From the UHGV virus genome UHGV-0185078: a stretch of DNA of 59,749 nt; one strand, given 5' to 3'. Source of the DNA: a virus. Below, one piece after another: positions 17,503-32,352 of the stretch (positions are counted from its first letter, which is position 1; every line of letters starts with the position of its first letter). A program made the translations under genes and the position numbers. The notes under the pieces are model-generated. The model searched no databases. It was not told where the DNA came from and was given only the letters and a program-made list of their open reading frames with translations.

Positions 17503-19488
17503 TTAGGCATATCCCATGTCTTCGAGATACTTCTCTGCTTTAGCTATATAAGCATCATAATCTATGTCGTCCGGTATTTTATCCGGTAGCGTCATGATTG
17601 GGACACCTCCCGCGCTACCAGCTACACGGTTGCCCGAGTTAGCATAAATTATTTCGGGAGTTTCTTCATTGGTGCTTAAATACCAGCGTACAACCTTACC
17701 CAAAAATTCGCCATTCCATACCGCGCCACCTTTCACCGCACGTAGGATAATGAATTTTCTAATATCGTTGCAATTGCGTATAGTACGAGAAACAGGCGTA
17801 CCGTGGGCCAGGCATTCGCATACAGCTTCCATGATAATTTCACCAGTACAGTTCTTTTGAAGTCCTGTCTTAGCAAACCAGCCTTTACGTTTAACTTCAA
17901 TGTTACCTTCTGCATCAGGTTCTTTGACAGCTACATAGTTGTTAACGTTCGCACTATATAGCTTGTCATAATAAGTGGATTCCATTTCAAAACCTGTGAC
18001 GGATTCCCACCACTTGATCATGTTATCAACGAAGTCTTGCATGTGGTCAGGATACTTAACCACAATACCATCGGTATTTGCTGAAATTACTTTAACACCG
18101 TTCAGCTCAAATGCTTCAATAAGCATTAACAGTGATAGTTGCCCTGTGATAGTTACCTGTATCAATAATTGCGGCGCGTACAGTACGGACCACATGGACC
18201 CTAACTTACCGAACGATCCGTTGATTACGATCTTCAGCGTGTTGGCTGTGTTCTTGTCCCCTGAGTGCTTAGCTGCAATACGGCGATCTACAATACTTTT
18301 ATAAACACGAAGGAACGCTGGTCCCAACTGCTCAGGGTATAATCCCTGATTAAGAATAATTGAAGGGTAATAGGACGTTACGTCAATGTCCCGCTTCTTA
18401 ATACCGGGCTCTTTACCGTGACCAGCACACTCTTCGGAGCTGTGCAAACCGCCAATACCCATACGGTAGACACCGTCCGCAATCTTGATTTCAAGACCTG
18501 TTAACGCTGGAGGCAGGCTAACGCCACCGTTATCGCTAACAATAAAGCGGCAGTCCCGAACAATATCCAAAACACTGTTCATCAGAGGTGTTTGAAAACG
18601 AATAAAGTCCGGTATGTTATACGCATACTTTGTTCCAGGATAAACTTGTGGACGCTGCGGACGCACACCAGTTAACGCTTGAATTTCGTGTTTAATTACG
18701 TCTTCTGCAATCTGTGCATCAGACCGTGAACGCAGATCCACACCGTATTCTTTCGACATAATTTCACGAAGGTGCAAAGGCTCTTGCAATGCAATAAAAC
18801 ATTCTTCCGTCTGTACAAGGTCGTTAATACAGTACCAGCGTACAATTAACATCTGGTCCTGCGTCAACATTGTATTTGGCTTGAACGGTAAATCCTGCAT
18901 ACGGCGAGTATGTACACGTCCGCCATATTGTTTCAAACCACCGGACCCAGGCAGCACTTCCATGATATCAATGTGGTTAACGTTCTGCATACGCTTGAGA
19001 CGGTAACTCTTCAATACATCAGAAGGACGCCAGTCTTCAACGATTATTTTATCGGTCGCGTCTTTAAGCTGCGCATTAGAACAGCCGTTAAGCGCAAGCG
19101 TAGCAATGGGCATATCGTACCCGTTACCGTTAAAACTCACGATAAGGAAGTTTGTCATTACCCAGTTAAGTAGCAAGCAATTCAAACTACAACCGTGATA
19201 CATTTCGAAGTAGACAACTTTCTTAGTTCGTACTCCGCGAAATGCAATTAAGAAATAGTTTGGATAACATTCGATATCGTATACAAGCGGTTCGCGGTTA
19301 ATCCATGCTTGAATAAGTTCATCCTGCGTATACAGGTTGTATTGGAAGTTCCGCGCTTCCTCAAGGTTAGGTAGATAATCCGGGCGCTCCCAAGTGCGCT
19401 CCGGCGGTAAACGTTTAACCTTTTCTTTCTTCACTTTTGGCTCAGGCGGTAAGTCCTGCCAAAAGAAACCAATAGCATCTGTCCGCAT
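17503..19488 (-). CDS. DNA polymerase, family B (with 3'-5' exonuclease domain)
   Basis: Exo I YDIE, Exo II NGNGYDMP, Exo III YCINDLV; pol motif A DVTSYYPSII, motif B KIVINGSFGKLG, motif C NTDGIVV; ATG 19488 overlaps upstream stop (TAATG). Confidence 0.85.
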   Translation of the reverse strand: MRTDAIGFFWQDLPPEPKVKKEKVKRLPPERTWERPDYLPNLEEARNFQYNLYTQDELIQAWINREPLVYDIECYPNYFLIAFRGVRTKKVVYFEMYHGCSLNCLLLNWVMTNFLIVSFNGNGYDMPIATLALNGCSNAQLKDATDKIIVEDWRPSDVLKSYRLKRMQNVNHIDIMEVLPGSGGLKQYGGRVHTRRMQDLPFKPNTMLTQDQMLIVRWYCINDLVQTEECFIALQEPLHLREIMSKEYGVDLRSRSDAQIAEDVIKHEIQALTGVRPQRPQVYPGTKYAYNIPDFIRFQTPLMNSVLDIVRDCRFIVSDNGGVSLPPALTGLEIKIADGVYRMGIGGLHSSEECAGHGKEPGIKKRDIDVTSYYPSIILNQGLYPEQLGPAFLRVYKSIVDRRIAAKHSGDKNTANTLKIVINGSFGKLGSMWSVLYAPQLLIQVTITGQLSLLMLIEAFELNGVKVISANTDGIVVKYPDHMQDFVDNMIKWWESVTGFEMESTYYDKLYSANVNNYVAVKEPDAEGNIEVKRKGWFAKTGLQKNCTGEIIMEAVCECLAHGTPVSRTIRNCNDIRKFIILRAVKGGAVWNGEFLGKVVRWYLSTNEETPEIIYANSGNRVAGSAGGVPIMTLPDKIPDDIDYDAYIAKAEKYLEDMGYA

Positions 19489-20441
19489 TAGACACGTTCT
19501 CCAATTAATACACCGCGAAGATTTTCCCCAAAGAATGCGCAAGGTTGCGGATACAAACTAAAGTCCGCAGTCTTAACCACATTTTCGAGCAATAGCAGGA
19601 TGTCAATATTGTACACTCCCGTTATTGTACGGTCCTGTAATACAAAGCTTGCACCTTCCGCATCATCATAGTGAGTACGGGCTAGACCGTTTTCAATATA
19701 TACACGCGGTCGGTCTTCTGCGAACGGTTTAATTTTATGCAAGCCTTCAAAAAGACCTGGATCAACAGGATGTGCATTGCATTGAACATTTAAAATACGA
19801 CGTATATCGGGCCACTCTGCATCAATAAGCTGTGTGCGCAACCAGCGACCTTCCGGATAATGAAACGTCACATTATTCTTGCTAACCTGAATATGTGTCG
19901 GGTTAGCCTTAATGCGCAGTATTTCTTTAATTGCAACGGAAGGTATTATGCAATCGATAGGGAACTGATTACCAAACCAGTATTCCGCAATAGTGACGTT
20001 ATTTGTAGCAAACAGGCTACCGTTATTAATCAGGATACCGCAAGCCCACGGACGGGAAGCATCGGAGCCTACAAACGGAGCAACGGACTTTACACCATGC
20101 ACGAAGCGAGCACCGTCTATTTCGTACAAATCACCTTCAGGGAATACGTGCGGCGTTTCTTTATCGATGCAGCGTATAGCAACACGAAACGGACCGGACT
20201 TGATATTAAGTTTACCGTTAGCCATCATTGTTAGCTGCACCGTTTCATCGCAGTTTGAAATAGCTTTAATCATAGGTCCAGCTTCGGGCTTGCAATCAAT
20301 ATCCAGCTCAATAGGGCTACCCAGTGCAATAACACCGTTAAAGCCCTGTACTTGTCCATCACGAATAAGAAAACTGGTAAGCCCTTCTACCAGTTCCTTT
20401 TTAGCGACGGAGCCTTGAACAAATTTAAGAGCGTCTAACAT
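19488..20441 (-). CDS. DNA polymerase sliding clamp (DnaN/beta-clamp-like)
   Basis: 317 aa; RWLRTQLIDAEWPDIRRIL resembles DnaN KLVDGRFPDYRRVLP; translationally coupled to the polymerase gene. Confidence 0.55.
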   Translation of the reverse strand: MLDALKFVQGSVAKKELVEGLTSFLIRDGQVQGFNGVIALGSPIELDIDCKPEAGPMIKAISNCDETVQLTMMANGKLNIKSGPFRVAIRCIDKETPHVFPEGDLYEIDGARFVHGVKSVAPFVGSDASRPWACGILINNGSLFATNNVTIAEYWFGNQFPIDCIIPSVAIKEILRIKANPTHIQVSKNNVTFHYPEGRWLRTQLIDAEWPDIRRILNVQCNAHPVDPGLFEGLHKIKPFAEDRPRVYIENGLARTHYDDAEGASFVLQDRTITGVYNIDILLLLENVVKTADFSLYPQPCAFFGENLRGVLIGERV

Positions 20442-20668
20442 TAGCGATCCTCGATTGCTCTAATTGTGGTTAAATCTAATTCACAGGTTGGAGGTAATCC
20501 ATAAAGCCCCATTTGTCTTCCTTGCGCATTAAACCATGTACCTGACGGATCCTGCCACTGCTTAGGTGTCTTGTGGAGAAATACTACTCTGTTTTCACCG
20601 TAATAATTAATTCTTACACCTGTGTGAGTATATTTACGTTTACCTTTTGGTCTTCTTAAGTTAGCCAT
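20441..20668 (-). CDS. hypothetical basic protein
   Basis: 75 aa ORF, start and stop overlap neighbours. Confidence 0.4.
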   Translation of the reverse strand: MANLRRPKGKRKYTHTGVRINYYGENRVVFLHKTPKQWQDPSGTWFNAQGRQMGLYGLPPTCELDLTTIRAIEDR

Positions 20669-21588
20669 CAGAACAACTCCATTACACGATCACGGAATGT
20701 GCCATCATGGGTAGCGTTAATGTTTGCAGCAATTACACCATACGCCCATAAGTTGAAGGCAGCACGTGATTCATAGATTGTTGATAAACGTTCGTAAGTG
20801 AAACCGTTTTGCTCAAGGTATTTAAGGACAGCGTCTTGTTCAATTTCAGTTAATGTTGAAACATGCTTACCAAAATGATGGCGGTCCGGTGACTTATCTG
20901 ATACGCGCATTGGCCCCCACGGAGGAGTAACCACACTTCCAAACGCTGCCGCTTGAATCCAGGAGGATGAGTCACAACTATACCACGGATAACGTTCCAT
21001 AATGGTTGTTGACGTAATACCAAACGCATGAAGTTTAATCTTAGCACGTCCGCTACCATCGCAAATATATTTGTCCCACATGCGGTCAAGCCAAGTCTTA
21101 AGCGTGTCCGTTGAACGTCCTACCATGCCCCCGATGGTGATATATTCGTAGTTCTTCATGTAGTATTCAAGATAGCGGAAGTCCTCCCCAAAGTGAAAGC
21201 ACGGTAACGGTTTAGCACCGCGTGCTTCCATTTCAAGCTGGTTACGGTAGGTCTGCAACGGATCACCGATACCATCGAGCACTGACGCCATTACAGCACC
21301 ATCTTCTACCCGCAAAATGTCTTTATTGCGCTTGATGTACTCGCAGTATTCAACAATATCAATGTGAGCACCCAAAGAGTGAGCGGAGAATGCACCAGAG
21401 TCGAGAAACACTTTAGCCCCATCCGCACGCATTTGATCAACATACTTCTGACGCCCAACGTAGTGGTACGATTCCAAAATATGGGGCAGGTTGCGAGTGA
21501 TATTTTTCTCATGCTCGGATAGCTTTTCGTAACGCTGCTGTCCAGGCATATATCCGTTAGTATACACAGCCGCCATGAATACATTCAT
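20668..21588 (-). CDS. dpdA: DpdA, tRNA-guanine transglycosylase-like DNA 7-deazaguanine transglycosylase
   Basis: 306 aa; TGT-like VFLDSGAFS motif; clustered with folE, queD, queC, queE. Confidence 0.75.
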   Translation of the reverse strand: MNVFMAAVYTNGYMPGQQRYEKLSEHEKNITRNLPHILESYHYVGRQKYVDQMRADGAKVFLDSGAFSAHSLGAHIDIVEYCEYIKRNKDILRVEDGAVMASVLDGIGDPLQTYRNQLEMEARGAKPLPCFHFGEDFRYLEYYMKNYEYITIGGMVGRSTDTLKTWLDRMWDKYICDGSGRAKIKLHAFGITSTTIMERYPWYSCDSSSWIQAAAFGSVVTPPWGPMRVSDKSPDRHHFGKHVSTLTEIEQDAVLKYLEQNGFTYERLSTIYESRAAFNLWAYGVIAANINATHDGTFRDRVMELF

Positions 21589-21612
21589 ATCTTAAATATA
21601 CCTCCAATGACT

Positions 21613-21648
21613 AAAAAGCCCATACCAGTATTATGACCGATATGGGCT
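21613..21648 (-). terminator. rho-independent terminator between folE and dpdA
   Basis: Minus strand reads agcccata...tatgggct hairpin followed by ttttt. Confidence 0.55.
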
Positions 21649-21667
21649 TGATCTGTAAAGCTATCTA

Positions 21668-22270
21668 TTATTTACAAGCTTCAAGGAACTCCCGGCGCCA
21701 AATTTGCCCCATCTCGGTACATTGATCCGTTTCCCCGCGAAACGCCTTAGTGATGGTAGAGCTTCCGCACACTTGCTTAACGCCGCGCGACTCCATGCAC
21801 ATATGCTTGGCGTCAATATAAACACATACAGCTTTCGGGTTTAAATTCTCTTCAATAGCGTCTGCAATCTGGTTAGTAAGACGTTCCTGAACTTGCAGTC
21901 GACGACTAAAAGCATCCACCACGCGAGACAGCTTACTAAGCCCAACGATCTTCCCATTGGGGACATAACCCACAACAGCATGACCGATAATAGGAGCCAT
22001 GTGATGCTCACAATGGCTGTATACAGGGATATCACGGACAATGACCATTTCATTGGTGTTTTCCGCCCCATCCTCAAAGGTCTTAAACAGCCCAGCAATA
22101 TCTACATCGTAACCGCCGAACCATGTAGCATAGGCTTTAGCGACACGATATGGAGTCTCTTCCAAACCTGGACGTAATTCAGTGCGATTTTCAATTCGAG
22201 TTAGTAAAGCGCGCACCGCGCGAGTAATTTCAAATTGAATACTTTCGTCATTAATAGTAAATTTTGACAT
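21668..22270 (-). CDS. folE: GTP cyclohydrolase I
   Basis: 200 aa; conserved CEHHMAPI...GHAVVGYVPNGKIVGLSKLSRVVD signature. Confidence 0.9.
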   Translation of the reverse strand: MSKFTINDESIQFEITRAVRALLTRIENRTELRPGLEETPYRVAKAYATWFGGYDVDIAGLFKTFEDGAENTNEMVIVRDIPVYSHCEHHMAPIIGHAVVGYVPNGKIVGLSKLSRVVDAFSRRLQVQERLTNQIADAIEENLNPKAVCVYIDAKHMCMESRGVKQVCGSSTITKAFRGETDQCTEMGQIWRREFLEACK

Positions 22271-22305
22271 GGTTTGCAGTTTCCTTGTTTGTTAATGTGG
22301 TCATA

Positions 22306-22839
22306 TTACAGGCTATAGTTTACGTGACATTTCGAAGTTTCTTCGATGGTGCATTCTACAAGTTGAACACCATGTTCGTCAAGCAGTTGCGGCCCAATTA
22401 CGTTTACCATGTATGCAGCTAAGTTTTCCGCAGTAGGGTTGAACGGTAAAGATACCAGCGAGTCAAAGAAATGGTATCCGTCCTCTTGCTCTACCACGTC
22501 ATACCCTATAGCAGCGTCGTGACGTAAAAGAGCATCGAGTCCTTTAATGAGAGGATCATTTTCCCAATGCAGGAATTTATGATCCCAGTTATCTTCCAGC
22601 CATTGGCAGAGCGTAGTTTTAACCACACTAAAATCAATAACGCGCCCAACATCGTCCAGTTTACCTTCAACGGAGAAACCTTTCGCACCCGGGATGTAGT
22701 TTTCGCTTTCTACGCGCTTCGGTGCAACCTTAAAGTGAAACTTATAGTTGTGACCGTGAAGGTGGCGACATTTGCTTTCATGACCCACAACACGATGTCC
22801 GGCGCAAATTTCATGTGAACGAATTACTGTATAGCTCAT
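22306..22839 (-). CDS. queD: 6-carboxy-5,6,7,8-tetrahydropterin synthase
   Basis: 177 aa; CAGHRVVGHESKCRHLHGHNY zinc-binding signature. Confidence 0.85.
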   Translation of the reverse strand: MSYTVIRSHEICAGHRVVGHESKCRHLHGHNYKFHFKVAPKRVESENYIPGAKGFSVEGKLDDVGRVIDFSVVKTTLCQWLEDNWDHKFLHWENDPLIKGLDALLRHDAAIGYDVVEQEDGYHFFDSLVSLPFNPTAENLAAYMVNVIGPQLLDEHGVQLVECTIEETSKCHVNYSL

Positions 22840-23168
22840 TAGAACTTCTCCGCGTGTTTTTCGTATGCTTTATTAATGACAGTGAGAAAGCACTGGTCCC
22901 ACTCACTCCACAGGACTTTACCCATACTTACCGCTTCAATGTAAAAAGTATGAGTGGCATCATCTTGGAACAATTTAATAGTGACGTCCGAACCATTTTG
23001 GATATAACCCATCAACGCGCGTATTTTATCACCTACATCCATGTATGGATTAAACTGAGGAACTGCTTCTTCAACCGCATCAATTAAATCATAAGCTTGC
23101 TGAGGGATGGGATTTCCGAAGGCCTTATGGGCAACACCTATTCTTGCTAGATTGCTCAGCTTATTCAT
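22839..23168 (-). CDS. hypothetical protein inside deazaguanine cluster
   Basis: 109 aa ORF, start/stop overlaps with neighbours imply co-translation in the cluster. Confidence 0.45.
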   Translation of the reverse strand: MNKLSNLARIGVAHKAFGNPIPQQAYDLIDAVEEAVPQFNPYMDVGDKIRALMGYIQNGSDVTIKLFQDDATHTFYIEAVSMGKVLWSEWDQCFLTVINKAYEKHAEKF

Positions 23169-23755
23169 TTTAATACCTCTTTAGATTGTTCGATTTCTAA
23201 CGCACGCTGTGCAGACGCAATAATGTCTTTCAAATCTTCTACCAGACTTTTATGACCGCGTTCGCCCGGCTGCAACGCCTTTTTAATTAAATGTTGTAAA
23301 GCTGGGTTAGTTGTTTTCCAAGCTTCCAAGACATCATACACGTCCACGATGCATTTTACAACATTGCCGTTTTGATCTTTACCATGAATAATTCTCTGAT
23401 ATTTATTCATAGGGATTTTAGACGGTTCGTATTTCGTAAAAACTGCACCATTAAATGTATTACTTATGCTTATTTCACTAGAAGGTTGATGATACACTCC
23501 GGAGCGAGTATTTTCCCGGGCTTGTTTGACGTAATCATCCGCAACGATATATCTCCAGGCTATAATATCTTGAATTTTATAAGGGCTATCCTCATCCATA
23601 GCTGAACGCCCGTCTATAGCCCAATCCCATCCATGTAATAGATTCTTAACGTGTGTGCCGTTGCGCAAACGAACTTCAAACTTTTCATTGCGAAGAAAGA
23701 TTGGCATTCCTTTCCCATCGTGCTGGTGCCAAATTTTATTAAGATTATCTTTCAT
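23165..23755 (-). CDS. hypothetical protein inside deazaguanine cluster
   Basis: Start set to ATG 23755 (track start at 23794 is TTG); 196 aa; no recognised motif. Confidence 0.45.
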   Translation of the reverse strand: MKDNLNKIWHQHDGKGMPIFLRNEKFEVRLRNGTHVKNLLHGWDWAIDGRSAMDEDSPYKIQDIIAWRYIVADDYVKQARENTRSGVYHQPSSEISISNTFNGAVFTKYEPSKIPMNKYQRIIHGKDQNGNVVKCIVDVYDVLEAWKTTNPALQHLIKKALQPGERGHKSLVEDLKDIIASAQRALEIEQSKEVLK

Positions 23756-23756
23756 T

Positions 23757-24239
23757 CTACGCTCTTGCTGTACTTGAATGAACTTCGTAAACAATCCAAA
23801 GGATAGCGGATGCTGTGAACTTACTTAAGCTCATTGCCACCATTGATCCAGGATTAACAATACCTATAATACTTAAGAACACAATGGAGTCAATCGGTAC
23901 AGCTACCAAAGAGCTAATAAATACACGTTGATGAAACGGCTTCTTAGTAATCGTGTATACCGCATAGTCCGCAAACTCACTAAGCGCAAAAGACGCAACG
24001 GATGCAACTACAACAGCAGGATCCCCAAATACCCAGCTAAGGATGCAACCCACAATCATTGCAGGGATAACGCCTTTGCCAGCGTTACGCTGTGCGTAGT
24101 CACGCAACACAAAGATAATACCTACAAAGAAAGCCATCATTGGGACTACACCGAGTGGTGTATTAAGCATTGGAAGGTAGGAAAAGCCCAGGTTTACGAA
24201 TGTAATTGCAGCCAGATAAGCAACGATAAATTTCATACT
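23757..24239 (-). CDS. integral membrane protein, possible YhhQ/QueT-like 7-deazaguanine precursor transporter
   Basis: Start set to ATG 24239 (GGAG RBS 9 nt upstream); 160 aa with 4-5 hydrophobic helices; weak resemblance to the YhhQ family; lies between queD and queC. Confidence 0.4.
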   Translation of the reverse strand, partial: SMKFIVAYLAAITFVNLGFSYLPMLNTPLGVVPMMAFFVGIIFVLRDYAQRNAGKGVIPAMIVGCILSWVFGDPAVVVASVASFALSEFADYAVYTITKKPFHQRVFISSLVAVPIDSIVFLSIIGIVNPGSMVAMSLSKFTASAILWIVYEVHSSTARA

Positions 24240-24356
24240 TTTGTTCTCCAGTTTTAACAGCGTTATTCGCTGGTTGTTGGGTTTAAAAGCTTTAGTAGTA
24301 TAGTTGGGTTCCCGCACCCTAAACAATGCGCTAGCGGTGCGGTTTTCGCGGTAAGA

Positions 24357-25064
24357 TCAAGCTTTGCTAATAAATTCGCTGTACCCTTTAGCACGCAGTT
24401 TGCACGCAGGACATTCACCGCAACCATAGCCCCAGTCATGCAGAGTGCGACGGATACCATTATAGCAGGTATGGGACTGTTCAATTACTGTGGTTAAGAA
24501 ACCAACCTTATCCGCCAGTTCAAACGTTTCCGCTTTGTTTAAACGCATAAGAGGGGTAACAAAATGAATATCTGTTTCATATCCAACGTTTAACGTAGCT
24601 TCAAGGAGATCAACAAACTGCTGGCGACAATCCGGATAACCGCTATAGTCTGTTTCACAAACGCCTGTAACCACATATCGAGCGCCAACTTTCTGTGCGT
24701 AGGCGTGAGCGGTAGTCAGGAAAAGAGCATTACGGTTTGGCACAAAGCTTGCTGGAAGGTTGTTGTGCTGTTCGTGATGTTCGTTAACATCACCTTCGTT
24801 CCCGATTAAAGCGCTATTGCCAATCTGTTTTAAAGCAGGTAATTCAAAGACAACAAATGGGACATCGTGCTCTTTACAAATTTGATTAGCACAAGCCAGC
24901 TCAATGTTATGACGTTGACCGTATGCAAAACCAATAGCGTAGACCTTATCATAGTTATTAAGTGCAAGGCCCAAACAGGTTACGCTGTCCTGGCCGCCAG
25001 ACAGGACGACAACGGCGGAGTTATGATTTTTTACAGGGAATACCAGTTTATCTAATTTATTCAT
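24357..25064 (-). CDS. queC: 7-cyano-7-deazaguanine synthase
   Basis: 235 aa; PP-loop VVVLSGGQDS; C-terminal Zn-Cys cluster CYNG...CGECPAC. Confidence 0.9.
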   Translation of the reverse strand: MNKLDKLVFPVKNHNSAVVVLSGGQDSVTCLGLALNNYDKVYAIGFAYGQRHNIELACANQICKEHDVPFVVFELPALKQIGNSALIGNEGDVNEHHEQHNNLPASFVPNRNALFLTTAHAYAQKVGARYVVTGVCETDYSGYPDCRQQFVDLLEATLNVGYETDIHFVTPLMRLNKAETFELADKVGFLTTVIEQSHTCYNGIRRTLHDWGYGCGECPACKLRAKGYSEFISKA

Positions 25065-25269
25065 TTACTTCACCTTTAATATCACAAGGATTGATTGTTA
25101 CGTTTGACATCACAATTGGATGATTGCGTGCCCCAATTGTACTAACGTAATTAATATCTAATTCTACATGCACGCCCTGCATAGTAGCGTGAGCAATTGC
25201 AGAATTAAGTTTTTCCACCAGCTCAGTGATCATTTCCTGATGCTGTTTCGCTTCTTCCAAAGTGATCAT
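25057..25269 (-). CDS. hypothetical protein inside deazaguanine cluster
   Basis: 70 aa; ATG 25269 with GAAGGTGA RBS; overlaps the upstream ORF. Confidence 0.4.
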   Translation of the reverse strand: MITLEEAKQHQEMITELVEKLNSAIAHATMQGVHVELDINYVSTIGARNHPIVMSNVTINPCDIKGEVNE

Positions 25270-25522
25270 TTCTTTTCACCTTCACTAATGTTTGTTTATA
25301 ATCCATACCTTCAAGGTCAACTTCTGCCATTTCACAAAAGTTATTATCTTCCCAGTATGGTGTCCATTCAGTTTCACCATCCCTCAATGTTGGCTCATAC
25401 TCGAATCCGTAAACTGTACCGTCTTGATCCGTAGCCATCCACCGTACCCATTCAGGGACATCAATCTTATTGCCAAAGTATTCAACTTCTTTAGTATGCA
25501 CAACCTGACTTAACACACGCAT
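25223..25522 (-). CDS. hypothetical acidic protein inside deazaguanine cluster
   Basis: 99 aa ORF, start overlaps queE stop. Confidence 0.4.
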   Translation of the reverse strand: MRVLSQVVHTKEVEYFGNKIDVPEWVRWMATDQDGTVYGFEYEPTLRDGETEWTPYWEDNNFCEMAEVDLEGMDYKQTLVKVKRNDHFGRSETASGNDH

Positions 25523-26229
25523 TATTCCACCCCGATATATTTGTGAACCTGAAGCTGCAACGTGTACCCGTGTTTCATACAGCTTTGGACAACCGCTTGG
25601 ATGTTACTGTGGTTAAGATCTTCATCCTGCTCGTCCATTGGCTGTAAATATATCTTACCCTTGAACCCCTTCGGAGGTCTAGCGATAAATGGCGTAGCTT
25701 GATGATCTAATGCTTGAAGAGGTAAACCATCTTCCACGTTTACACAGCACGCTTTAAGTACATATTTAAATGCATTAGCGCGGTAAAGCACAGAAGGATG
25801 AATCTTTGAGGTCTTGGGACTACATACAATCACAGGCAACTGGGAAAAGTTCTTAGGTAAAGGCATAGACCCATTAGTTTCGATTTGCACCAAATAGCCC
25901 CGCGATAACAGTTGTTCAATAAACGGGTTAATTTGCTGACGGAACGGTTCACCCCCAGTAATAACCACAAGTGAGGTGCTATTGCCTGATTCCAGCTTAC
26001 GGCTTTCGATTAAACGCATGATATCAACAATGTGGTAAAGAGAACGACCAACAGTATAATCCGTGTCGCAGCCCGGGCATTGTAGGTTACATCCAGCAAG
26101 ACGCACAAATACAGCAGGTTGGCCGCAGAATGGCCCTTCACCCTGAATGGTAGAGAATACCGAATGCACGTCTAAATACATATCGTTTTCTTTAGAACGA
26201 GACTCGGGAGCTTGTTGATTAATATTCAT
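25522..26229 (-). CDS. queE: 7-carboxy-7-deazaguanine synthase (radical SAM)
   Basis: 235 aa; radical-SAM Cys triad CNLQCPGCDT; AGAGGA RBS. Confidence 0.9.
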   Translation of the reverse strand: MNINQQAPESRSKENDMYLDVHSVFSTIQGEGPFCGQPAVFVRLAGCNLQCPGCDTDYTVGRSLYHIVDIMRLIESRKLESGNSTSLVVITGGEPFRQQINPFIEQLLSRGYLVQIETNGSMPLPKNFSQLPVIVCSPKTSKIHPSVLYRANAFKYVLKACCVNVEDGLPLQALDHQATPFIARPPKGFKGKIYLQPMDEQDEDLNHSNIQAVVQSCMKHGYTLQLQVHKYIGVE

Positions 26230-27229: not shown

Positions 27230-27724
27230 CTAGCTCTTTGCCCCTCTGCCCGGCGTCCATGCAGCTTGCAATGCGGGTTGCTCACAAACAACCCTGGCAC
27301 CGGAAATAATACCACCCTCCCGTTCAGCATCGTATTTGACACGGGCAGGTTTCCAAAGTCCTTCATCCATTGACGGAACGTATTGCCCAATTTGAGGTGA
27401 GCAAAAGCCTTGGATATCGTATTCCACACAGAATTCAGCTTGTGCGCTGATTTGGGCGTGATCCAGGATTGTTTCTGGAAGTTGCGTAAAGTAATCAAAC
27501 AAAATGCGCTCAACGATTTCCCGTTCATAAGGTGCAGCTCCTAAATTTTCTGTCAAGTTAATATAAAGCATTTGAAGATCAACATCTTCAAGATCGTGTA
27601 AATCGTCCACTGGTGTTACCAGTGTTGACTCCGGACAACAAATAATTCCAAGTTGGTGTAGTGTCAGCCAATTGGGATGCTTTGCCAAGAGCTCAAATTT
27701 ATCTGTATCAATTAGGACGTACAT
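27230..27724 (-). CDS. hypothetical acidic protein
   Basis: 164 aa; AGGGGA RBS 5 nt upstream of ATG. Confidence 0.45.
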   Translation of the reverse strand: MYVLIDTDKFELLAKHPNWLTLHQLGIICCPESTLVTPVDDLHDLEDVDLQMLYINLTENLGAAPYEREIVERILFDYFTQLPETILDHAQISAQAEFCVEYDIQGFCSPQIGQYVPSMDEGLWKPARVKYDAEREGGIISGARVVCEQPALQAAWTPGRGAKS

Positions 27725-27783: not shown

Positions 27784-29763
27784 TTAGAACGGAACGTAAT
27801 CCGGATCATCTACTTGCACAGGATTAACCACATTGTTCACCGTTATGCCTTGCGTATTCTGTGAAACAATATCATCCCAGCTCACATCATCATTGTTATA
27901 GCTCGGACCTTCTGTTGTTCCATCCTGCCCGTATACTTTAACCTGAATAGCTTCGTCGTCCTGTGGTGCTTCAAACTTACCGAAACACGTACCATCATAA
28001 TCATAGTTCAATATCTCAGGCCATTTCTTATTGGTATGAACTTTGATGTATTTCGGTGTTTTAAGCATTGCAGCAACATCAAGGGCTTCTTCAATAGTTT
28101 GTGGTAAAGGAAGATGCGTCCTTTTCTTCCACCATGCAACCGCTTTACGACCTGCCCAGTCACCATGAAGCAGAGCTACCCATTCGCTGAATATTTTACT
28201 ACCGCAATAATAAGTCACCTTCATTGTTGGAGGTTTGGAGCTGTCATTGCGTTTAGTGTGCTTCGCATAAGTGACATGCGTAACTTTAAAGTCTTCAACT
28301 ACCGGAATGTCTTGCTTGATTAAAGCTTCGGTACTTGCTGCCTTTTTAAGTTTTGTCTGGAACTTAAACTCATGACCGCAAAATCCTTCTTTAACATAAT
28401 CCGTTCCACGTAGTCTGAATCCCTTCAAATACAATTGTTGAACTTGTTCCTGTGTAACGCTGTCCATAGGAATTGGTGCAAAGCCACCGCAATAGCGAGC
28501 AGATGCATGATTATACGACCCGCACACATCGCATTCTTTAACCGGAGCAGTACCAGCACCTTTTTCGCCCGGGCGCTTGGGTTTAACAGGGTCGTTAATA
28601 GGGCCCAAACGACGCGTATTACCGCTGAAATCCAGTACAAGGCAGTTCTGCTTAGGGCTTGCTGCAATAGCTTGCAAGCGACCTTCCTGCGTGGAAAGAT
28701 CAAAGCCCTCCGCATATACCGGACGCGTACCGCGACCCAACATCTGAACCCATAGCACTGCCGAGGCAGTGGGGCGAAGCATAATAATTAGATCAAGCAT
28801 CGGATGGTCGAACCCTGTGGTTAAGACGTTGTTGTTCGTCAGCGCTCGAAACTCTCCACGCTTGAATTTTTCAATAATTTCATCACGCTCTTTTGCATCA
28901 AGCTTTGAGTGAATACATCCGCAACTAATACCCATATCGTTCAGCATATCACACGCATCTTTAGCGTGTTCAATACCAGAACAAAATATAAGCCAGCTTT
29001 GACGGTCTTCACCACATTCAATGGCTTCCTCAAGTGCGCGGAGTGTTGCGTCGTCGCGGTTCACTGCACTTTGCAGCTCACTCTGAATAAACTCACCGCC
29101 GCGTTTACCTACCCCGTTGAGGTCCAGTTCCATCTTTGTACGCTTTGGCACAACCGGAAGCAAATAACCTTGCTCCAGGAACCAGTTAAAGGCTTCAGGA
29201 GTAGTCGCATCAAACGTTACTTTATCAAATAAAGCATCATCGTCTTCGTTTTCCTTAACAATTGAGCCGTAACCCAGTCGATAAGGTGTAGCGGTAAGAC
29301 CGATAATTTTTAAATACGGGTTAACTTCACGCAATGCTGCAAAGAACTTCTTATACATTGTTGCATCACGCGGACTAATAAGGTGCGCTTCATCCACAAA
29401 GATTAGATCAACCTTGCCGAACTTTTTAGGATGCTTAGCAACGGATGCAATCCCCGCAAATGTGATAAGATTATAAACTTCTTTACGCTTCAAACCTGCA
29501 CTGTAAATACCTGCTGGCGCTTCAGGCCAGACTTTCATTAATTTATCATAGTTTTGCGCGATCAACTCTTTGACGTGAGTTAACATCATTACGCGCTGGT
29601 TTGGATACCATTTATAAAGCAGATCGAGGAACCCCGCGATAACGAGCGATTTTCCTGTCCCTGTTGGTAACAGGATCAAAGGGTTCCCCGCGTTACCCTT
29701 TTCAGCATCAAAATAGCGGAATACGCTATAAACTGCTTCCTGTTGATAATCGCGGAGCTGCAT
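27784..29763 (-). CDS. SF2 DEAD/DEAH-box DNA helicase
   Basis: Motif I LLPTGTGKS, motif II FVDEAH, motif III LTATP, motif VI QMLGRGTR; start taken at ATG 29763 (track start is TTG). Confidence 0.85.
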   Translation of the reverse strand: MQLRDYQQEAVYSVFRYFDAEKGNAGNPLILLPTGTGKSLVIAGFLDLLYKWYPNQRVMMLTHVKELIAQNYDKLMKVWPEAPAGIYSAGLKRKEVYNLITFAGIASVAKHPKKFGKVDLIFVDEAHLISPRDATMYKKFFAALREVNPYLKIIGLTATPYRLGYGSIVKENEDDDALFDKVTFDATTPEAFNWFLEQGYLLPVVPKRTKMELDLNGVGKRGGEFIQSELQSAVNRDDATLRALEEAIECGEDRQSWLIFCSGIEHAKDACDMLNDMGISCGCIHSKLDAKERDEIIEKFKRGEFRALTNNNVLTTGFDHPMLDLIIMLRPTASAVLWVQMLGRGTRPVYAEGFDLSTQEGRLQAIAASPKQNCLVLDFSGNTRRLGPINDPVKPKRPGEKGAGTAPVKECDVCGSYNHASARYCGGFAPIPMDSVTQEQVQQLYLKGFRLRGTDYVKEGFCGHEFKFQTKLKKAASTEALIKQDIPVVEDFKVTHVTYAKHTKRNDSSKPPTMKVTYYCGSKIFSEWVALLHGDWAGRKAVAWWKKRTHLPLPQTIEEALDVAAMLKTPKYIKVHTNKKWPEILNYDYDGTCFGKFEAPQDDEAIQVKVYGQDGTTEGPSYNNDDVSWDDIVSQNTQGITVNNVVNPVQVDDPDYVPF

Positions 29764-29765
29764 AA

Positions 29766-30674
29766 TCAATCTTTCCCGTAATAGTTAGCTACTTGATAGT
29801 TTTGACAACCAACTTTTTGACCCTGAGTATCTACTGCAACGGAATGGAAATTGCAATACCATGTTCCATCATCTTTTGGCTCAAGAAATTGACATGTGCG
29901 ACAGTTTACTTCCGGCATAGTTTTACGCCAGCACAATGAGGAGTGGTCGCACCATTTGCATTCGAAGAAGGTAGAGTCTTTGAATGCACGGTCAGGAATA
30001 TCCGTAGCAATAGCAATCTGCACACCACGATCAATATACATGTCCGCAGTGACCGGATCAAATGGAATAATTTCTGCGTAAACTTCATCATCGTTCTTGT
30101 TTACAGCAAGATATAACGCTGCGCCAAGTCCAAGCTTTCGCATGTACACGTTCATTTGCACATAGTGCTCAGGTTTAGCTTCTTTGACACCTTTAGCTTT
30201 CAGCTTCTTGAAAGACTTATCGTTGTGGGTCTTCATTTCAGTAAGCACAGGCATCCCAGGCTGAACGTCCGGACAACCTATAACCACACCATCGCAGGAA
30301 CCTCCAAAGTGTCCACCCGCTTCACTGATACGGAACTGGTGTCCGTTTTCATCCTGCTGGTAGACCTGCATACCTGCCGCAAGAAGCATAGCAATGAAAC
30401 GCGCTTCTTCCAGATGTCCGCGGTTAAATAGGCGGAGCTGGCGTCCATCAAATTCTTTACGAGTAGCCCAGCGATACCCGTAGAACAGCTTGCGAGCACA
30501 TTGTTGTCCAATAAGGGAAGCACCTAAGTGACTGCGATTCCCGCTTTCAGGACGATATGCGTCTTCAATTGTGGGAATAACTACGCCGAGATATTTACGG
30601 TAAGTCCCACCCTGATCTTTTTGCACACCGTCATTGATCGCTTGAAGTGTTTTTTCTGCAATATAAATAGCCAT
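29766..30674 (-). CDS. PD-(D/E)XK exonuclease with C-terminal Cys cluster (RecB/Cas4-like)
   Basis: GSCDGVV...LTEMKT D/ExK core; CKWCDHSSLC...CRTCQF...WYC cysteine cluster. Confidence 0.6.
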   Translation of the reverse strand: MAIYIAEKTLQAINDGVQKDQGGTYRKYLGVVIPTIEDAYRPESGNRSHLGASLIGQQCARKLFYGYRWATRKEFDGRQLRLFNRGHLEEARFIAMLLAAGMQVYQQDENGHQFRISEAGGHFGGSCDGVVIGCPDVQPGMPVLTEMKTHNDKSFKKLKAKGVKEAKPEHYVQMNVYMRKLGLGAALYLAVNKNDDEVYAEIIPFDPVTADMYIDRGVQIAIATDIPDRAFKDSTFFECKWCDHSSLCWRKTMPEVNCRTCQFLEPKDDGTWYCNFHSVAVDTQGQKVGCQNYQVANYYGKD

Positions 30675-30739
30675 TGGAGCACCTTAGAAAAATAAGCCGT
30701 CTTTCGACGGCTTAGGGACACTACAGAGGGAGGGTTAAC

Positions 30740-31624
30740 TTACTGCTGCCACGGCGGGACTGCTGCTTGTGCCGGATGGGGTTCAGCTTGCTGCTGTGGC
30801 TGCGCTTGCTGCTGCGGTGCTGCTGCCTGGCCCGGCTGCGCTACCTGTTGCGCCCACGGTTGCTGAGCTGCTTCCGGCGCTACTGGTTGTTGTACCGGAG
30901 CTTGCTGAACTGGCTGCTGTGGCGCTGCGTTTTGAGCAGGGTTATCCCACGGCTGCGGTGCAGCATTCTGCCACGGTTGAGCTGCTGCGCCCTGCTGCGG
31001 TGCTGGTTGCTGCTGCACAGGCTGCTGAACTGGCTGCTGTTGCTGTACCGGAGCTTGCTGCTGTACAGGCGCTTGCTGTTGCTGAGCAAACGGGTTAGCT
31101 GCTGACTGCTGTGGCGCTGCGCCTGGGAAAGTCGGTTGCTGTGCTGGCGCACCTGCACCAAACGGGTTAGCTACTGCTGGAGCACCCATTGATGGAGCCT
31201 CTGCTGCTTTTTCTGCATATTTAACCGGATCGTTGATGTTAGCGTAACCGTTAGGCTCGTTGCTGTCTTCATAACCTTCCTGAGAACGAACTTTCAGACG
31301 CAGGTTCAGCGGAATGTTATGCAGTTGCGCAGGAGTATCCCAGCGAATTACACCAACTGCATGAGACAGAGCGCCCAGTTGCTCGTAAGCGATACGCACA
31401 GTATCTTCGTTGTCATTGATGACGTTATAACGAGCAAAGATTTTACGCCCTTTAGCAAAACCGTCAATGATGCTAAACGTTGCCTGGATCGCCATACCGC
31501 CATTTTTGGTCGGTTTAAATTCAGATGCTTCAATTACTGCTTTATACCAACCTTTCGGCAATGCGCCGTAAGAAGGTGCTTGATAGCTGCTCGCGTCAAA
31601 GTGGAAATTAGTTGGCATAGTCAT
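30740..31624 (-). CDS. putative ssDNA-binding protein with long Gln/Pro/Ala-rich C-terminal tail
   Basis: 294 aa; N-terminal globular part then about 160 aa of A/P/Q low complexity with PWQ/PWD repeats ending PPWQQ; adjacent to Sak4-like ATPase. Confidence 0.45.
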   Translation of the reverse strand: MTMPTNFHFDASSYQAPSYGALPKGWYKAVIEASEFKPTKNGGMAIQATFSIIDGFAKGRKIFARYNVINDNEDTVRIAYEQLGALSHAVGVIRWDTPAQLHNIPLNLRLKVRSQEGYEDSNEPNGYANINDPVKYAEKAAEAPSMGAPAVANPFGAGAPAQQPTFPGAAPQQSAANPFAQQQQAPVQQQAPVQQQQPVQQPVQQQPAPQQGAAAQPWQNAAPQPWDNPAQNAAPQQPVQQAPVQQPVAPEAAQQPWAQQVAQPGQAAAPQQQAQPQQQAEPHPAQAAVPPWQQ

Positions 31625-32352
31625 TAGTTGATACCTTTCATTTTGTTGATAACAGAACCTAAGTGTGGGACTTCAACCGCATCTAAACGTCCCGAACGAT
31701 CCTTAGCGATTGTATTAAAGTCCGGTTGAGTTTGCAAGTAACGATATGAGTTACCTTGCTGATCCTTATTTACATTCAGACGAAACACTTCGTCGAAGAA
31801 GTAAGGGAGCATTTGCCCCAATTTGGACCCAGGCATAGATGGAGCATACGCGGTAACACCGGAGACTTCATCTTTGTCTTTGCCCATTTTAGCAGACATA
31901 TAAACATGTTTGCCAGGAATATCGCGAAATTTACGGATCAGATCTTGCATCTTTTCAAGCAAAGTACCATAAGCTTGACGAGGATCTTTTGTTCCTTTTT
32001 TCGCATTGTTTAAACATTGTTCAGCAATTTCGCTCAAGCTGTCAAGCGCAATAGAATCGAAATACTGCTGGTTAGCTGGAGTTACACACCACTGATAAGC
32101 AGCTTCAACGTCCTCCAGACATTTAACTTCGATAACAGGAATATCATAAACGATCGGCAATCCCATGTTACCATAAACGCGATTAAGGTTTTCCGCTGCA
32201 ATAGATAACAGACCGGACTCTGCGCTGATCAAAATTGGTTTAGGTAGTGTGGCTACAAGGCTGGTTTTACCCATACCCGCTTCACCGTAAACCAGAATTT
32301 TAACGCCTGTGTCTTGCACTACTTGTGAAGACATTTTAATTTCAATGGCCAT
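31624..32352 (-). CDS. RecA-fold ATPase (Sak4-like)
   Basis: Walker A LVYGEAGMGKTS; hydrophobic-Asp Walker B IALDSLSE; 242 aa. Confidence 0.65.
   Translation of the reverse strand: MAIEIKMSSQVVQDTGVKILVYGEAGMGKTSLVATLPKPILISAESGLLSIAAENLNRVYGNMGLPIVYDIPVIEVKCLEDVEAAYQWCVTPANQQYFDSIALDSLSEIAEQCLNNAKKGTKDPRQAYGTLLEKMQDLIRKFRDIPGKHVYMSAKMGKDKDEVSGVTAYAPSMPGSKLGQMLPYFFDEVFRLNVNKDQQGNSYRYLQTQPDFNTIAKDRSGRLDAVEVPHLGSVINKMKGIN

Follow-up and report, generated by a model that had tools for sequence, protein, structure and literature searches.

A conserved Pro-Pro-Trp tip on a long uncharged linker in a probable SSB of the DUF669 family from a coliphage

The DUF669 gene and its two-part product

The virus genome UHGV-0185078, which we analysed as a single stretch of 59,749 nucleotides (hereafter, the window), encodes on its minus strand a 294-amino-acid (aa) protein of the Pfam family DUF669 that probably acts as a single-stranded DNA (ssDNA)-binding protein (SSB); we refer to it as the window SSB. 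The gene itself is already known as a DUF669 member present in dozens of sequenced Seuratviruses. What is conserved, widespread and apparently undescribed in the literature we searched is the C-terminal half of its product, where a non-acidic, tryptophan-based tip ends a linker of the sticker-and-spacer type. Using the list of open reading frames (ORFs), a predicted structure and an alignment of relatives, we were able to divide the gene as follows.

30740..31624 (-): complete coding sequence of the DUF669-family SSB, ATG start, 294 aa, stop TAA at 30740-30742 (ORF list)
31190..31624 (-): N-terminal globular domain, aa 1-145, DUF669, predicted oligonucleotide/oligosaccharide-binding (OB)-like fold b1-b2-b3-helix-b4-b5
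30743..31189 (-): disordered uncharged Gln/Ala/Pro linker, aa 146-294, from composition and AlphaFold2 confidence (predicted local distance difference test, pLDDT, 40-56)
31088..31162 (-): three Phe "stickers" of the proximal tail, F155 in ANPFGAG, F166 in P[TA]FPGA and F179 in ANPFAQQ
30947..30973 (-): Pro-Trp motifs 1 and 2, AQPWQN (W218 codon 30971-30973) and PQPWDN (W226 codon 30947-30949)
30854..30862 (-): Pro-Trp motif 3, QQPWAQ (W257 codon 30854-30856)
30743..30778 (-): conserved near-C-terminal tip HPAQAAVPPWQQ, aa 283-294 (W292 codon 30749-30751); as a peptide, EPHPAQAAVPPWQQ

The two halves of the protein differ sharply in composition. Within the 149 residues of the tail (aa 146-294) we count 48 Gln, 36 Ala and 30 Pro, together 77%, with no Lys or Arg and three Asp or Glu, and the sequence entropy is 2.68 bits as against 4.10 bits in the N-terminal domain (aa 1-145), whose residue composition is ordinary. 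Predicted disorder starts in the block aa 141-150. All four tail Trp residues directly follow a Pro (AQPWQN at W218, PQPWDN at W226, QQPWAQ at W257 and VPPWQQ at W292, the end of the protein), an arrangement with a chance probability of about 0.002 given that Pro makes up 0.20 of the tail residues. The tail ends in AVPPWQQ and has no acidic end of the DDDIPF type. A preliminary description of this locus, made from the sequence alone, had reported a non-acidic tail with repeated Pro-Trp motifs ending in PPWQQ, which these counts bear out with four such motifs and only 3 acidic residues in 149; its estimate of about 160 tail residues was close to the 149 that we count from position 146.

The DNA encoding the tail has a GC content of 0.60-0.65, compared with about 0.43 in its surroundings, and is rich in CAG, GCA and AGC. 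The Gln codons are mixed (32 CAG, 16 CAA), no run of CAG exceeds 2, and the tandem-repeat finder returned only weak repeats of 9-18 nucleotides (nt), ruling out a true CAG/CTG triplet repeat. Two plus-strand ORFs also span the tail region (30767-31105 and 30769-31098), with products of 109-112 aa that are Leu/Arg/Cys-rich and Ala/Leu/Val-rich. We rejected both as genes, since the substitution pattern and the selection on this DNA follow the minus-strand frame; they are by-products of the CAG/GCA-rich composition.

Assignment of the N-terminal domain

The window SSB matches DUF669 (PF05037) with an expectation value (E) of 2.3e-13 and 50.9 bits against a gathering cutoff of 21, aligning aa 8-131 to positions 2-126 of the 138-position profile, and is by this measure a member of the family; the same domain is present in 120/120 of its best homologues. 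In the PHROG collection it has a full-length match to phrog_13350 (E 2e-138), matches to three SSB-annotated families (phrog_6015, E 6e-36; phrog_7778; phrog_378) and a further match to phrog_2300. AlphaFold2, run on a 62-sequence alignment, models aa 21-140 at a pLDDT of 92-98 and aa 146-294 at 40-56. The predicted topology, b1-b2-b3, a long helix (73-90) and b4-b5, follows the order of an OB fold, and on this model the protein would have the OB-fold core of a phage SSB. A flexible tail carrying a conserved terminal motif of the docking type is also found, as in other phage SSBs, with the motif being non-acidic, unlike the classical case. Foldseek against viral models retrieved DUF669 proteins and entries named "single stranded DNA binding protein", and a search of PDB with the SSB sequence gave 0 matches.

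DUF669 has been proposed to be a highly diverged OB-fold SSB family, was linked to the N4 SSB at an HHsearch probability of 98%, and occurs in viruses without other SSBs (PMC4889955). We find no canonical SSB in the 59.7-kb window, either as a PF00436 match or by tblastn similarity to the E. coli SSB. The window SSB itself has neither the PF00436 match nor the acidic [DE]-[DE]-[DE]-I-P-F tip of the canonical bacterial type, and it shows neither the structural similarity nor the acidic tail with a terminal Phe that mark the SSB/annealase of T7 gp2.5 type. From the predicted fold, the synteny with the ATPase gene Sak4, the lack of another SSB in the window and the literature (PMC4889955, PMC5928155), we infer that the protein binds ssDNA, an expectation that is well motivated. 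With no canonical SSB found beside it in the window, it most likely serves the phage as general SSB, acting in replication as well as in recombination. The preliminary description had called it an SSB-like recombination protein beside a Sak4-like ATPase: the SSB-like character and the position stand, being backed by the DUF669 match, the OB-like predicted fold and a place directly downstream of Sak4 like that of the HK620 and N4 SSBs, both proven by experiment, while recombination is probably only one part of its work.

Selection and length variation in the tail

We aligned the protein with its close relatives (alignment A3; 14 sequences, 58-99% identity, 262-316 aa) to observe how the tail changes. 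Relatives at the genus level range from 262 to 302 aa, and all of their length changes are in frame and lie in the tail, with 0 indels in the N-terminal domain within the genus. In the 14-sequence alignment every in-frame indel falls in the spacer segments of the tail; these are a 6-residue QQQAPV unit, single Gln residues and gaps of 4 residues, of 18 residues (phage Greed) and of 32 residues (one metagenomic relative). The aromatic residues between the spacers stay in place. F155, F166, W218, W226, W257 and W292 are invariant, as are P217, P225, N228, P229 and A258, and F179 with P178, Q255 and P256 are nearly so. Apart from a single A-to-S substitution at position 287, the HPAQ-AVPPWQQ tip is invariant, and this holds down to Hafnia phage yong3 (58% identity).

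Codon differences in the tail are predominantly synonymous. Compared with six phages, the ratios of synonymous to non-synonymous differences are 20:2, 28:4, 17:4, 24:4, 23:1 and 21:3, an excess at least as skewed as in the folded domain. The synonymous excess, the confinement of indels to the spacers and the invariant aromatics and tip together indicate, on the evidence of alignment and codon comparison, that the tail is functional and not neutral filler. The opposite possibility, that replication slippage in GC-rich CAG/GCA DNA has generated a neutral low-complexity stretch without function, would account for the length differences among close relatives, the biased composition with its short 9-18-nt tandem repeats, and the wide divergence of spacer composition between lineages. 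The alignment, the codon comparison and the motif logo described below already contradict it, through the strong synonymous excess, the invariant aromatics and tip, the conservation of the motif across hundreds of 50%-identity clusters and the lack of long pure triplet runs, and we regard it as highly improbable. The length variation that the preliminary description expected of the CAG/CTG-rich tail DNA is confirmed: the DNA is CAG/GCA/AGC-rich and the lengths of relatives do differ, from 262 to 316 aa in the alignment. The motifs are fixed and only the spacers vary.

A Pro-Pro-Trp tip across the family

We determined how far the tip extends with two homologue searches. The first picks candidates by shared words and could favour similar tails; we used its best 120 homologues. 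The second, made to avoid this bias, ran the N-terminal domain alone against 1.84 billion cluster representatives. The 120 homologues have N-terminal domains that are 35-50% identical to that of the window SSB, and their tails are, with few exceptions, uncharged and Q/P/A-rich, contain 3-7 Trp and carry PPW close to the end. The domain-only search yielded 5019 clusters at E<=0.001 and 1386 at E<=1e-10; among the top 150, nearly all end in PPW plus 1-11 residues, on tails of 18 to about 200 aa. A logo built from 254/260 homologues reads A-Q-x-A-[TV]-P(93%)-P(93%)-W-[AQM]-Q, the Trp being followed by a median of 5 residues, and the tip is kept in these 254/260 whatever the tail length (18-209 aa) or the spacer composition. 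Across the 120 homologous tails, 405/541 Trp residues follow a Pro, against a Pro background of 0.20, the preferred form of the motif being [QP]-P-W-[AQ]-Q, and the number of Trp grows with tail length, from 1.1 in tails of <60 aa to 4.3 in those of 110-150 aa.

In more distant isolates a Trp tip of this kind persists although the spacer is different. Kakheti25 and RcSpartan have G/Q-rich tails with GGxWGGQ repeats and end in APWGQR or GPWGQR; Shy has an N/G/Q-rich tail ending in PAWGQPR, BP63 a 46-residue tail ending in AAAPWEE, and coliphage 9g a Q-rich tail ending in TKTPPWKRSTEGDDAAQ. Relatives from IMG/VR with tails of 30-55 residues end in KPWERHKK, VPWQK, PPWRRN or APW. Acidic tips such as ...GDDVPPFE and ...DDDSDLPF are rare exceptions among close relatives. 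Because these few proteins carry the acidic tip in place of PPW, the sequences suggest that the two tips occupy the same functional slot, and PPW probably plays the part that the acidic Pro-Phe tip plays elsewhere.

Only acidic tails figure in published accounts of DUF669 proteins and of phage SSBs associated with Sak4 (PMC4889955, PMC5928155), and the statement that DUF669 proteins have such tails fails for this large branch. The tail had been called unusual in the preliminary description; within its own lineage it is not, being the rule in a very large phage subfamily. Its proposed part as a protein-interaction region gains support from the conserved near-terminal PPW and the tail aromatics. 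We also considered a second candidate for such a tip in the window, the 164-aa ORF 27230-27724 (-) (phrog_7864), which lies just downstream of the module described next and ends in ...EQPALQAAWTPGRGAKS. The resemblance of this end (QPALQAAW...) to A-Q-A-A-x-P-P-W is weak, and we judged it to be chance.

A four-gene module with Sak4, an exonuclease and a helicase

The SSB gene lies in a run of minus-strand genes that, with it, form a conserved four-gene module of Sak4, SSB, Cas4-type exonuclease and RadD-like helicase.

31624..32352 (-): Sak4-like RecA-core ATPase (AAA_24), Pfam PF13479 E 1e-27, phrog_124 Sak4-like E 2e-59
31622..31626 (-): TAATG overlap of 1 nt between the Sak4 stop and the SSB start, from the sequence, with an AAAGG Shine-Dalgarno-like element about 9 nt upstream
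30683..30714 (-): intrinsic terminator right after the SSB gene, 9-bp stem TAAGCCGTC/GACGGCTTA, loop GAAA, T-run (terminator scan)
29766..30674 (-): Cas4/RecB-type exonuclease, phrog_1990 Cas4-domain exonuclease, E 1e-117
27784..29769 (-): RadD-like superfamily 2 helicase, Pfam ResIII/Helicase_C, NCBIfam RadD NF053632 E 2e-78, below the family cutoff

The TAATG overlap implies translational coupling of Sak4 and SSB, and the annotations of GottfriedDienst, SA126VB, CAjan, Seurat and Greed likewise have the two genes sharing 1 nt. The intrinsic terminator is a strong one and has an annotated rho-independent counterpart in SA126VB; its placement between SSB and exonuclease suggests that Sak4 and SSB are expressed more than the downstream genes. 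The window locus shows the adjacent, co-oriented Sak4/AAA_24 gene by which Sak4-associated SSBs are recognised. Among annotated loci with an identifiable upstream gene, AAA_24 lies upstream of DUF669 in 11/11 (Pseudomonas, Rhizobium, Rhodobacter, Acinetobacter and Salmonella phages, coliphages 9g and Shy, and metagenomic contigs), with one small ORF in between at locus L003. The exonuclease and helicase are found 1-3 genes downstream of Trp-tip SSBs in almost all annotated loci and in 21 further IMG/VR loci.

The C-terminus of the helicase, which is encoded two genes downstream of the SSB, reads ...VDDPDYVPF (tip at nt 27787-27810, (-)), an acidic tip resembling the bacterial SSB C-terminal tip (SSB-Ct). 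Its orthologue in a Pseudomonas phage ends in ...DFDDDIPF, the canonical bacterial SSB-Ct itself. We found that 115/120 of the best helicase homologues end in PF (95 in IPF, 19 in VPF), mostly after acidic residues and in many cases exactly as ...DFDDDIPF; helicases beside short-tailed Trp-tip SSBs lack the acidic tip. The likeness to RadD lies in the N-terminal half of the helicase (NF053632). E. coli RadD binds SSB-Ct, and SSB stimulates its ATPase (PMC10238739). We considered docking of the helicase tip in cis in a RadD-type SSB-Ct pocket and find it unsupported, since R21 and R49 of that pocket align with D and N and only R145 is matched, by K (PMC10238739). The canonical acidic tip has not been lost from the module and is carried by the helicase instead of the SSB; the earlier remark that a DDDIPF tail is missing holds for the SSB and not for the module. 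Our literature searches found no description of an acidic SSB-Ct tip on a helicase of this module. One helicase homologue, P0412, is about 340 aa longer, at 995 aa, and carries PF05204, PF05203 and PF14528, which we take to be homing-endonuclease/intein-type domains, suggesting that an intein is inserted in it.

Comparison with characterized SSBs

One of the closest characterized parallels is the SSB of HK620 (HkaK; PMC5928155). It too is a phage SSB encoded directly downstream of Sak4, with an OB-type core and a flexible tail ending in Pro-Pro-aromatic (NDYPPF, compared with VPPWQQ in the window SSB). It differs in that its tail is short (about 50 aa), contains acidic residues and has Phe as the very last residue, and it has no long Gln/Pro/Ala linker and no Trp repeats. 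The N4 SSB (gp45, L044:8322-9119) likewise comes directly after a Sak4-like gene (gp44, L044:7521-8276) and has a non-acidic tail, ...AAKSLFGKK, in which an aromatic residue precedes the end by a few positions; its C-terminus serves as a protein-interaction site (PMC4496689). Its similarity to the window SSB is remote (hhalign 8%), its tail is short and basic, and its known partner is the beta-prime subunit of the host RNA polymerase, in late transcription. The basic C-terminus of the N4 protein loosely recalls the KPWERHKK tips of short-tailed DUF669 proteins.

The E. coli SSB (PF00436) shares the general plan, with an OB core, a disordered Gly/Gln/Pro-rich linker and a terminal docking motif; cooperativity and phase separation are promoted by its linker, which includes a GGWGQP element. 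It belongs to another OB family, and its acidic tip is read by partner pockets through the terminal Phe carboxylate (PMC10238739). The window tip is by comparison uncharged and Trp-based with more residues after the aromatic, and the linker is about 2.5 times longer with several aromatic motifs. The three-part SSB plan of OB-type core, disordered linker and short terminal docking motif is kept, while linker and tip are built differently.

T7 gp2.5 is also a phage SSB whose tail aromatic residue contacts replication proteins. In T7 both the SSB and the gp4 helicase-primase have acidic tails ending in Phe. The helicase of the window module likewise has an acidic Phe-ended tail; the gp2.5 tail is acidic, whereas the window SSB and helicase carry two different types of motif. 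PrgE of plasmid pCF10 (PDB 8S4S; PMC11137577) shares 12% identity and is encoded in an operon for plasmid conjugation; it lacks a long disordered tail, and its gene has no Sak4 beside it.

Proposed mechanism and alternative readings

We consider it fairly probable that the protein is a DUF669 SSB made of an OB core, an uncharged sticker linker and a PPW docking tip, with Sak4 as the likeliest partner, working within the four-gene module. This proposal starts from family membership, predicted fold and disorder, the pattern of conservation and selection, and synteny. The SSB would be co-produced with the RecA-like annealase Sak4 through translational coupling, and its core would coat the ssDNA that comes from the exonuclease, the helicase and the replisome. 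The linker would provide reach, its spacers being free to drift in length and composition through in-frame indels, with the fixed aromatics (three Phe and three internal Pro-Trp motifs) acting as putative stickers. The A-Q-x-A-[TV]-P-P-W tip, 2-10 residues before the C-terminus, would replace the acidic ...DDDIPF-COOH and dock a phage partner, most probably Sak4 by analogy with the HK620 NDYPPF. The HK620 SSB, encoded next to Sak4, binds ssDNA and stimulates Sak4 annealing via those last six residues, which the loading of Sak4 requires (PMC5928155). It is this precedent, together with the consistent adjacency and the coupled translation, that makes Sak4 the leading candidate. The internal PW and F motifs may add multivalent weak contacts, giving SSB-SSB cooperativity or condensates as for the E. 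coli SSB linker. The tip should also miss the pockets of host SSB-interacting proteins, since it is non-acidic and not C-terminal, and those pockets read a terminal Phe carboxylate and upstream Asp (PMC10238739). This suggests that phage ssDNA would be insulated from the host SSB interactome.

Several observations weigh against this proposal. For no true Pfam DUF669 member did we find ssDNA binding demonstrated directly. The HK620 authors equate their SSB with DUF669 (PMC5928155), yet the HK620 SSB has no Pfam DUF669 match at E<0.01; BLASTP of the window SSB against the HK620 and N4 SSBs was not significant, hhalign probabilities were 6% (HK620) and 8% (N4), and those two proteins sit in phrog_743 while the window SSB is in phrog_13350/6015/2300/378/7778. 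We rejected placing the window SSB in the HK620/N4 group (phrog_743), to which no BLASTP, hhalign, Pfam or PHROG link leads, the connection being the published HHsearch (PMC4889955). An AlphaFold2 model of a Sak4-SSB fusion (block-diagonal alignment, read out by pLDDT only) gave the tip a score of 60, against 56 for the SSB alone, and did not dock it with confidence. Compared at a coarse level, Sak4 subtype does not track tip type, as the Trp-tip locus L004 and the acidic-tip locus L005 both have a divergent Sak4. Condensation and cooperativity are proposed from composition.

The lack of confident docking in the fusion model and the repetition of the motif can be read in another way, in which the Trp motifs act mainly on the SSB itself. 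They would be base mimics that enter the ssDNA groove of their own or neighbouring OB domains, auto-inhibiting the protein without DNA and building a cooperative filament or condensate on DNA, and the tip would have no heterologous partner of its own. We think this unlikely on balance, but it would explain why tip-like P-W motifs are repeated internally in numbers that scale with tail length and why a sticker-and-spacer pattern is conserved while spacers drift. The tails of T7 gp2.5 and E. coli SSB fold back onto their own OB folds, a precedent for such self-contacts; a further precedent is the E. coli SSB linker, which drives cooperativity and phase separation according to a preprint (bioRxiv 10.1101/2022.01.17.476650). 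Against it, the monomer model, with a tail pLDDT of 40-56, places no part of the tail confidently on the OB domain. Moreover, conservation in the terminal motif (A-Q-x-A-[TV]-PPW) extends to positions that are absent from the internal copies, pointing to a specific pocket, and short-tailed relatives retain the tip alone.

A specific pocket could also belong to a partner other than Sak4, namely the Cas4-type exonuclease, the RadD-like helicase, the phage clamp or polymerase, or the host RNA polymerase; taken together we give these a small probability. The exonuclease and helicase follow Trp-tip SSBs in nearly all loci and the exonuclease is missing both from L005, the only acidic-tip locus with context, and from HK620, but the comparison had two acidic-tip loci only, and the Trp-tip locus L003 has neither gene within 6 kb. 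The clamp has much the same distribution as the SSB (362 and 388 phage records, in the same genera) and QAAVPPW can be read as Q-x-x-h-x-x-aromatic, resembling a PCNA-interacting peptide (PIP). Such co-occurrence is confounded by the inheritance of the whole replication module together, two prolines inside a PIP-like motif are atypical, and the C-terminus of the DNA polymerase has no similar motif. We consider the clamp-binding reading unsupported, as the polymerase and the other replication proteins lack such a terminus even though the clamp co-occurs. For the host RNA polymerase there is the case of the N4 SSB, whose C-terminal residues are essential for activating that enzyme in late transcription (PMC4496689), though its tip (...SLFGKK) is dissimilar.

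Returning to the docking of the PPW tip on a phage partner, a more far-reaching version is that PPW and its internal P-W copies form a new class of SSB docking motif, independent of SSB-Ct and read by phage and not host proteins, with the acidic tip moved to the helicase. We put this forward tentatively, as a doubtful possibility. If true, phage proteins (Sak4, exonuclease or helicase) would recognise ssDNA coated by the phage SSB and host SSB-interacting proteins could not, and the ...DD[IV]PF tip of the helicase could engage or compete for host proteins that bind SSB-Ct, giving a self-contained phage recombination-replication module a two-motif wiring.

Proteins of replication, recombination and repair are organised on ssDNA around the C-terminal tips of SSBs, which act as hubs and are under study as drug targets. 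The Trp-tip lineage is large, with isolates infecting Escherichia, Pseudomonas, Salmonella, Vibrio, Rhizobium and Xanthomonas, and offers a clean setting in which a rewired SSB interaction code can be tested. It has implications for the way phages protect their ssDNA from host repair enzymes and, since cognate tip-partner pairs matter, for Sak4/SSB recombineering tools. It may likewise matter for anti-phage systems in which phage SSBs are sensed (Retron-Eco8, DARNA, Hna and AbpAB). Conserved aromatic stickers in a drifting uncharged spacer additionally provide a natural sticker-and-spacer model in a bacterial virus.

Source phage and other genes of the window

At the DNA level, 34 phage records match the SSB gene with 92-98% identity; almost all are Escherichia phages of the genus Seuratvirus (Queuovirinae), and the window is a Seuratvirus coliphage. 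The records include OddieOddie, Seurat, CAjan and the BASEL phages GottfriedDienst and VogelGryff, in which the gene is annotated as "hypothetical protein". Two records assigned to other host genera, "Aeromonas phage SD04" and "Cronobacter phage CSP1" (MH230177.1, KY982929.1), carry an SSB gene with 94-95% DNA identity to those of E. coli Seuratviruses, a surprisingly high likeness given the different hosts. Beyond the module, the window encodes a primase-polymerase and the following minus-strand genes.

17503-26229 (-): replication and DNA-modification block
17503-19542 (-): DNA polymerase
19488-20441 (-): beta-clamp-like processivity factor, weak Pfam DNA_pol3_beta_2 and strong phrog_947 match
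20668-21588 (-): DpdA-like transglycosylase
24357-25064 (-): QueC
25522-26229 (-): QueE-like radical-SAM protein

The DpdA-like, QueC and QueE-like genes fit the 7-deazaguanine DNA modification known for Queuovirinae. Finally, some GenBank records mislabel homologues of the SSB and of its Sak4 neighbour, as "cell division protein FtsK", "methyl-accepting chemotaxis protein", "multimodular transpeptidase-transglycosylase" or "dihydrolipoamide acyltransferase component"; for the SSB, these names probably come from low-complexity matches of the Q/P/A tail.

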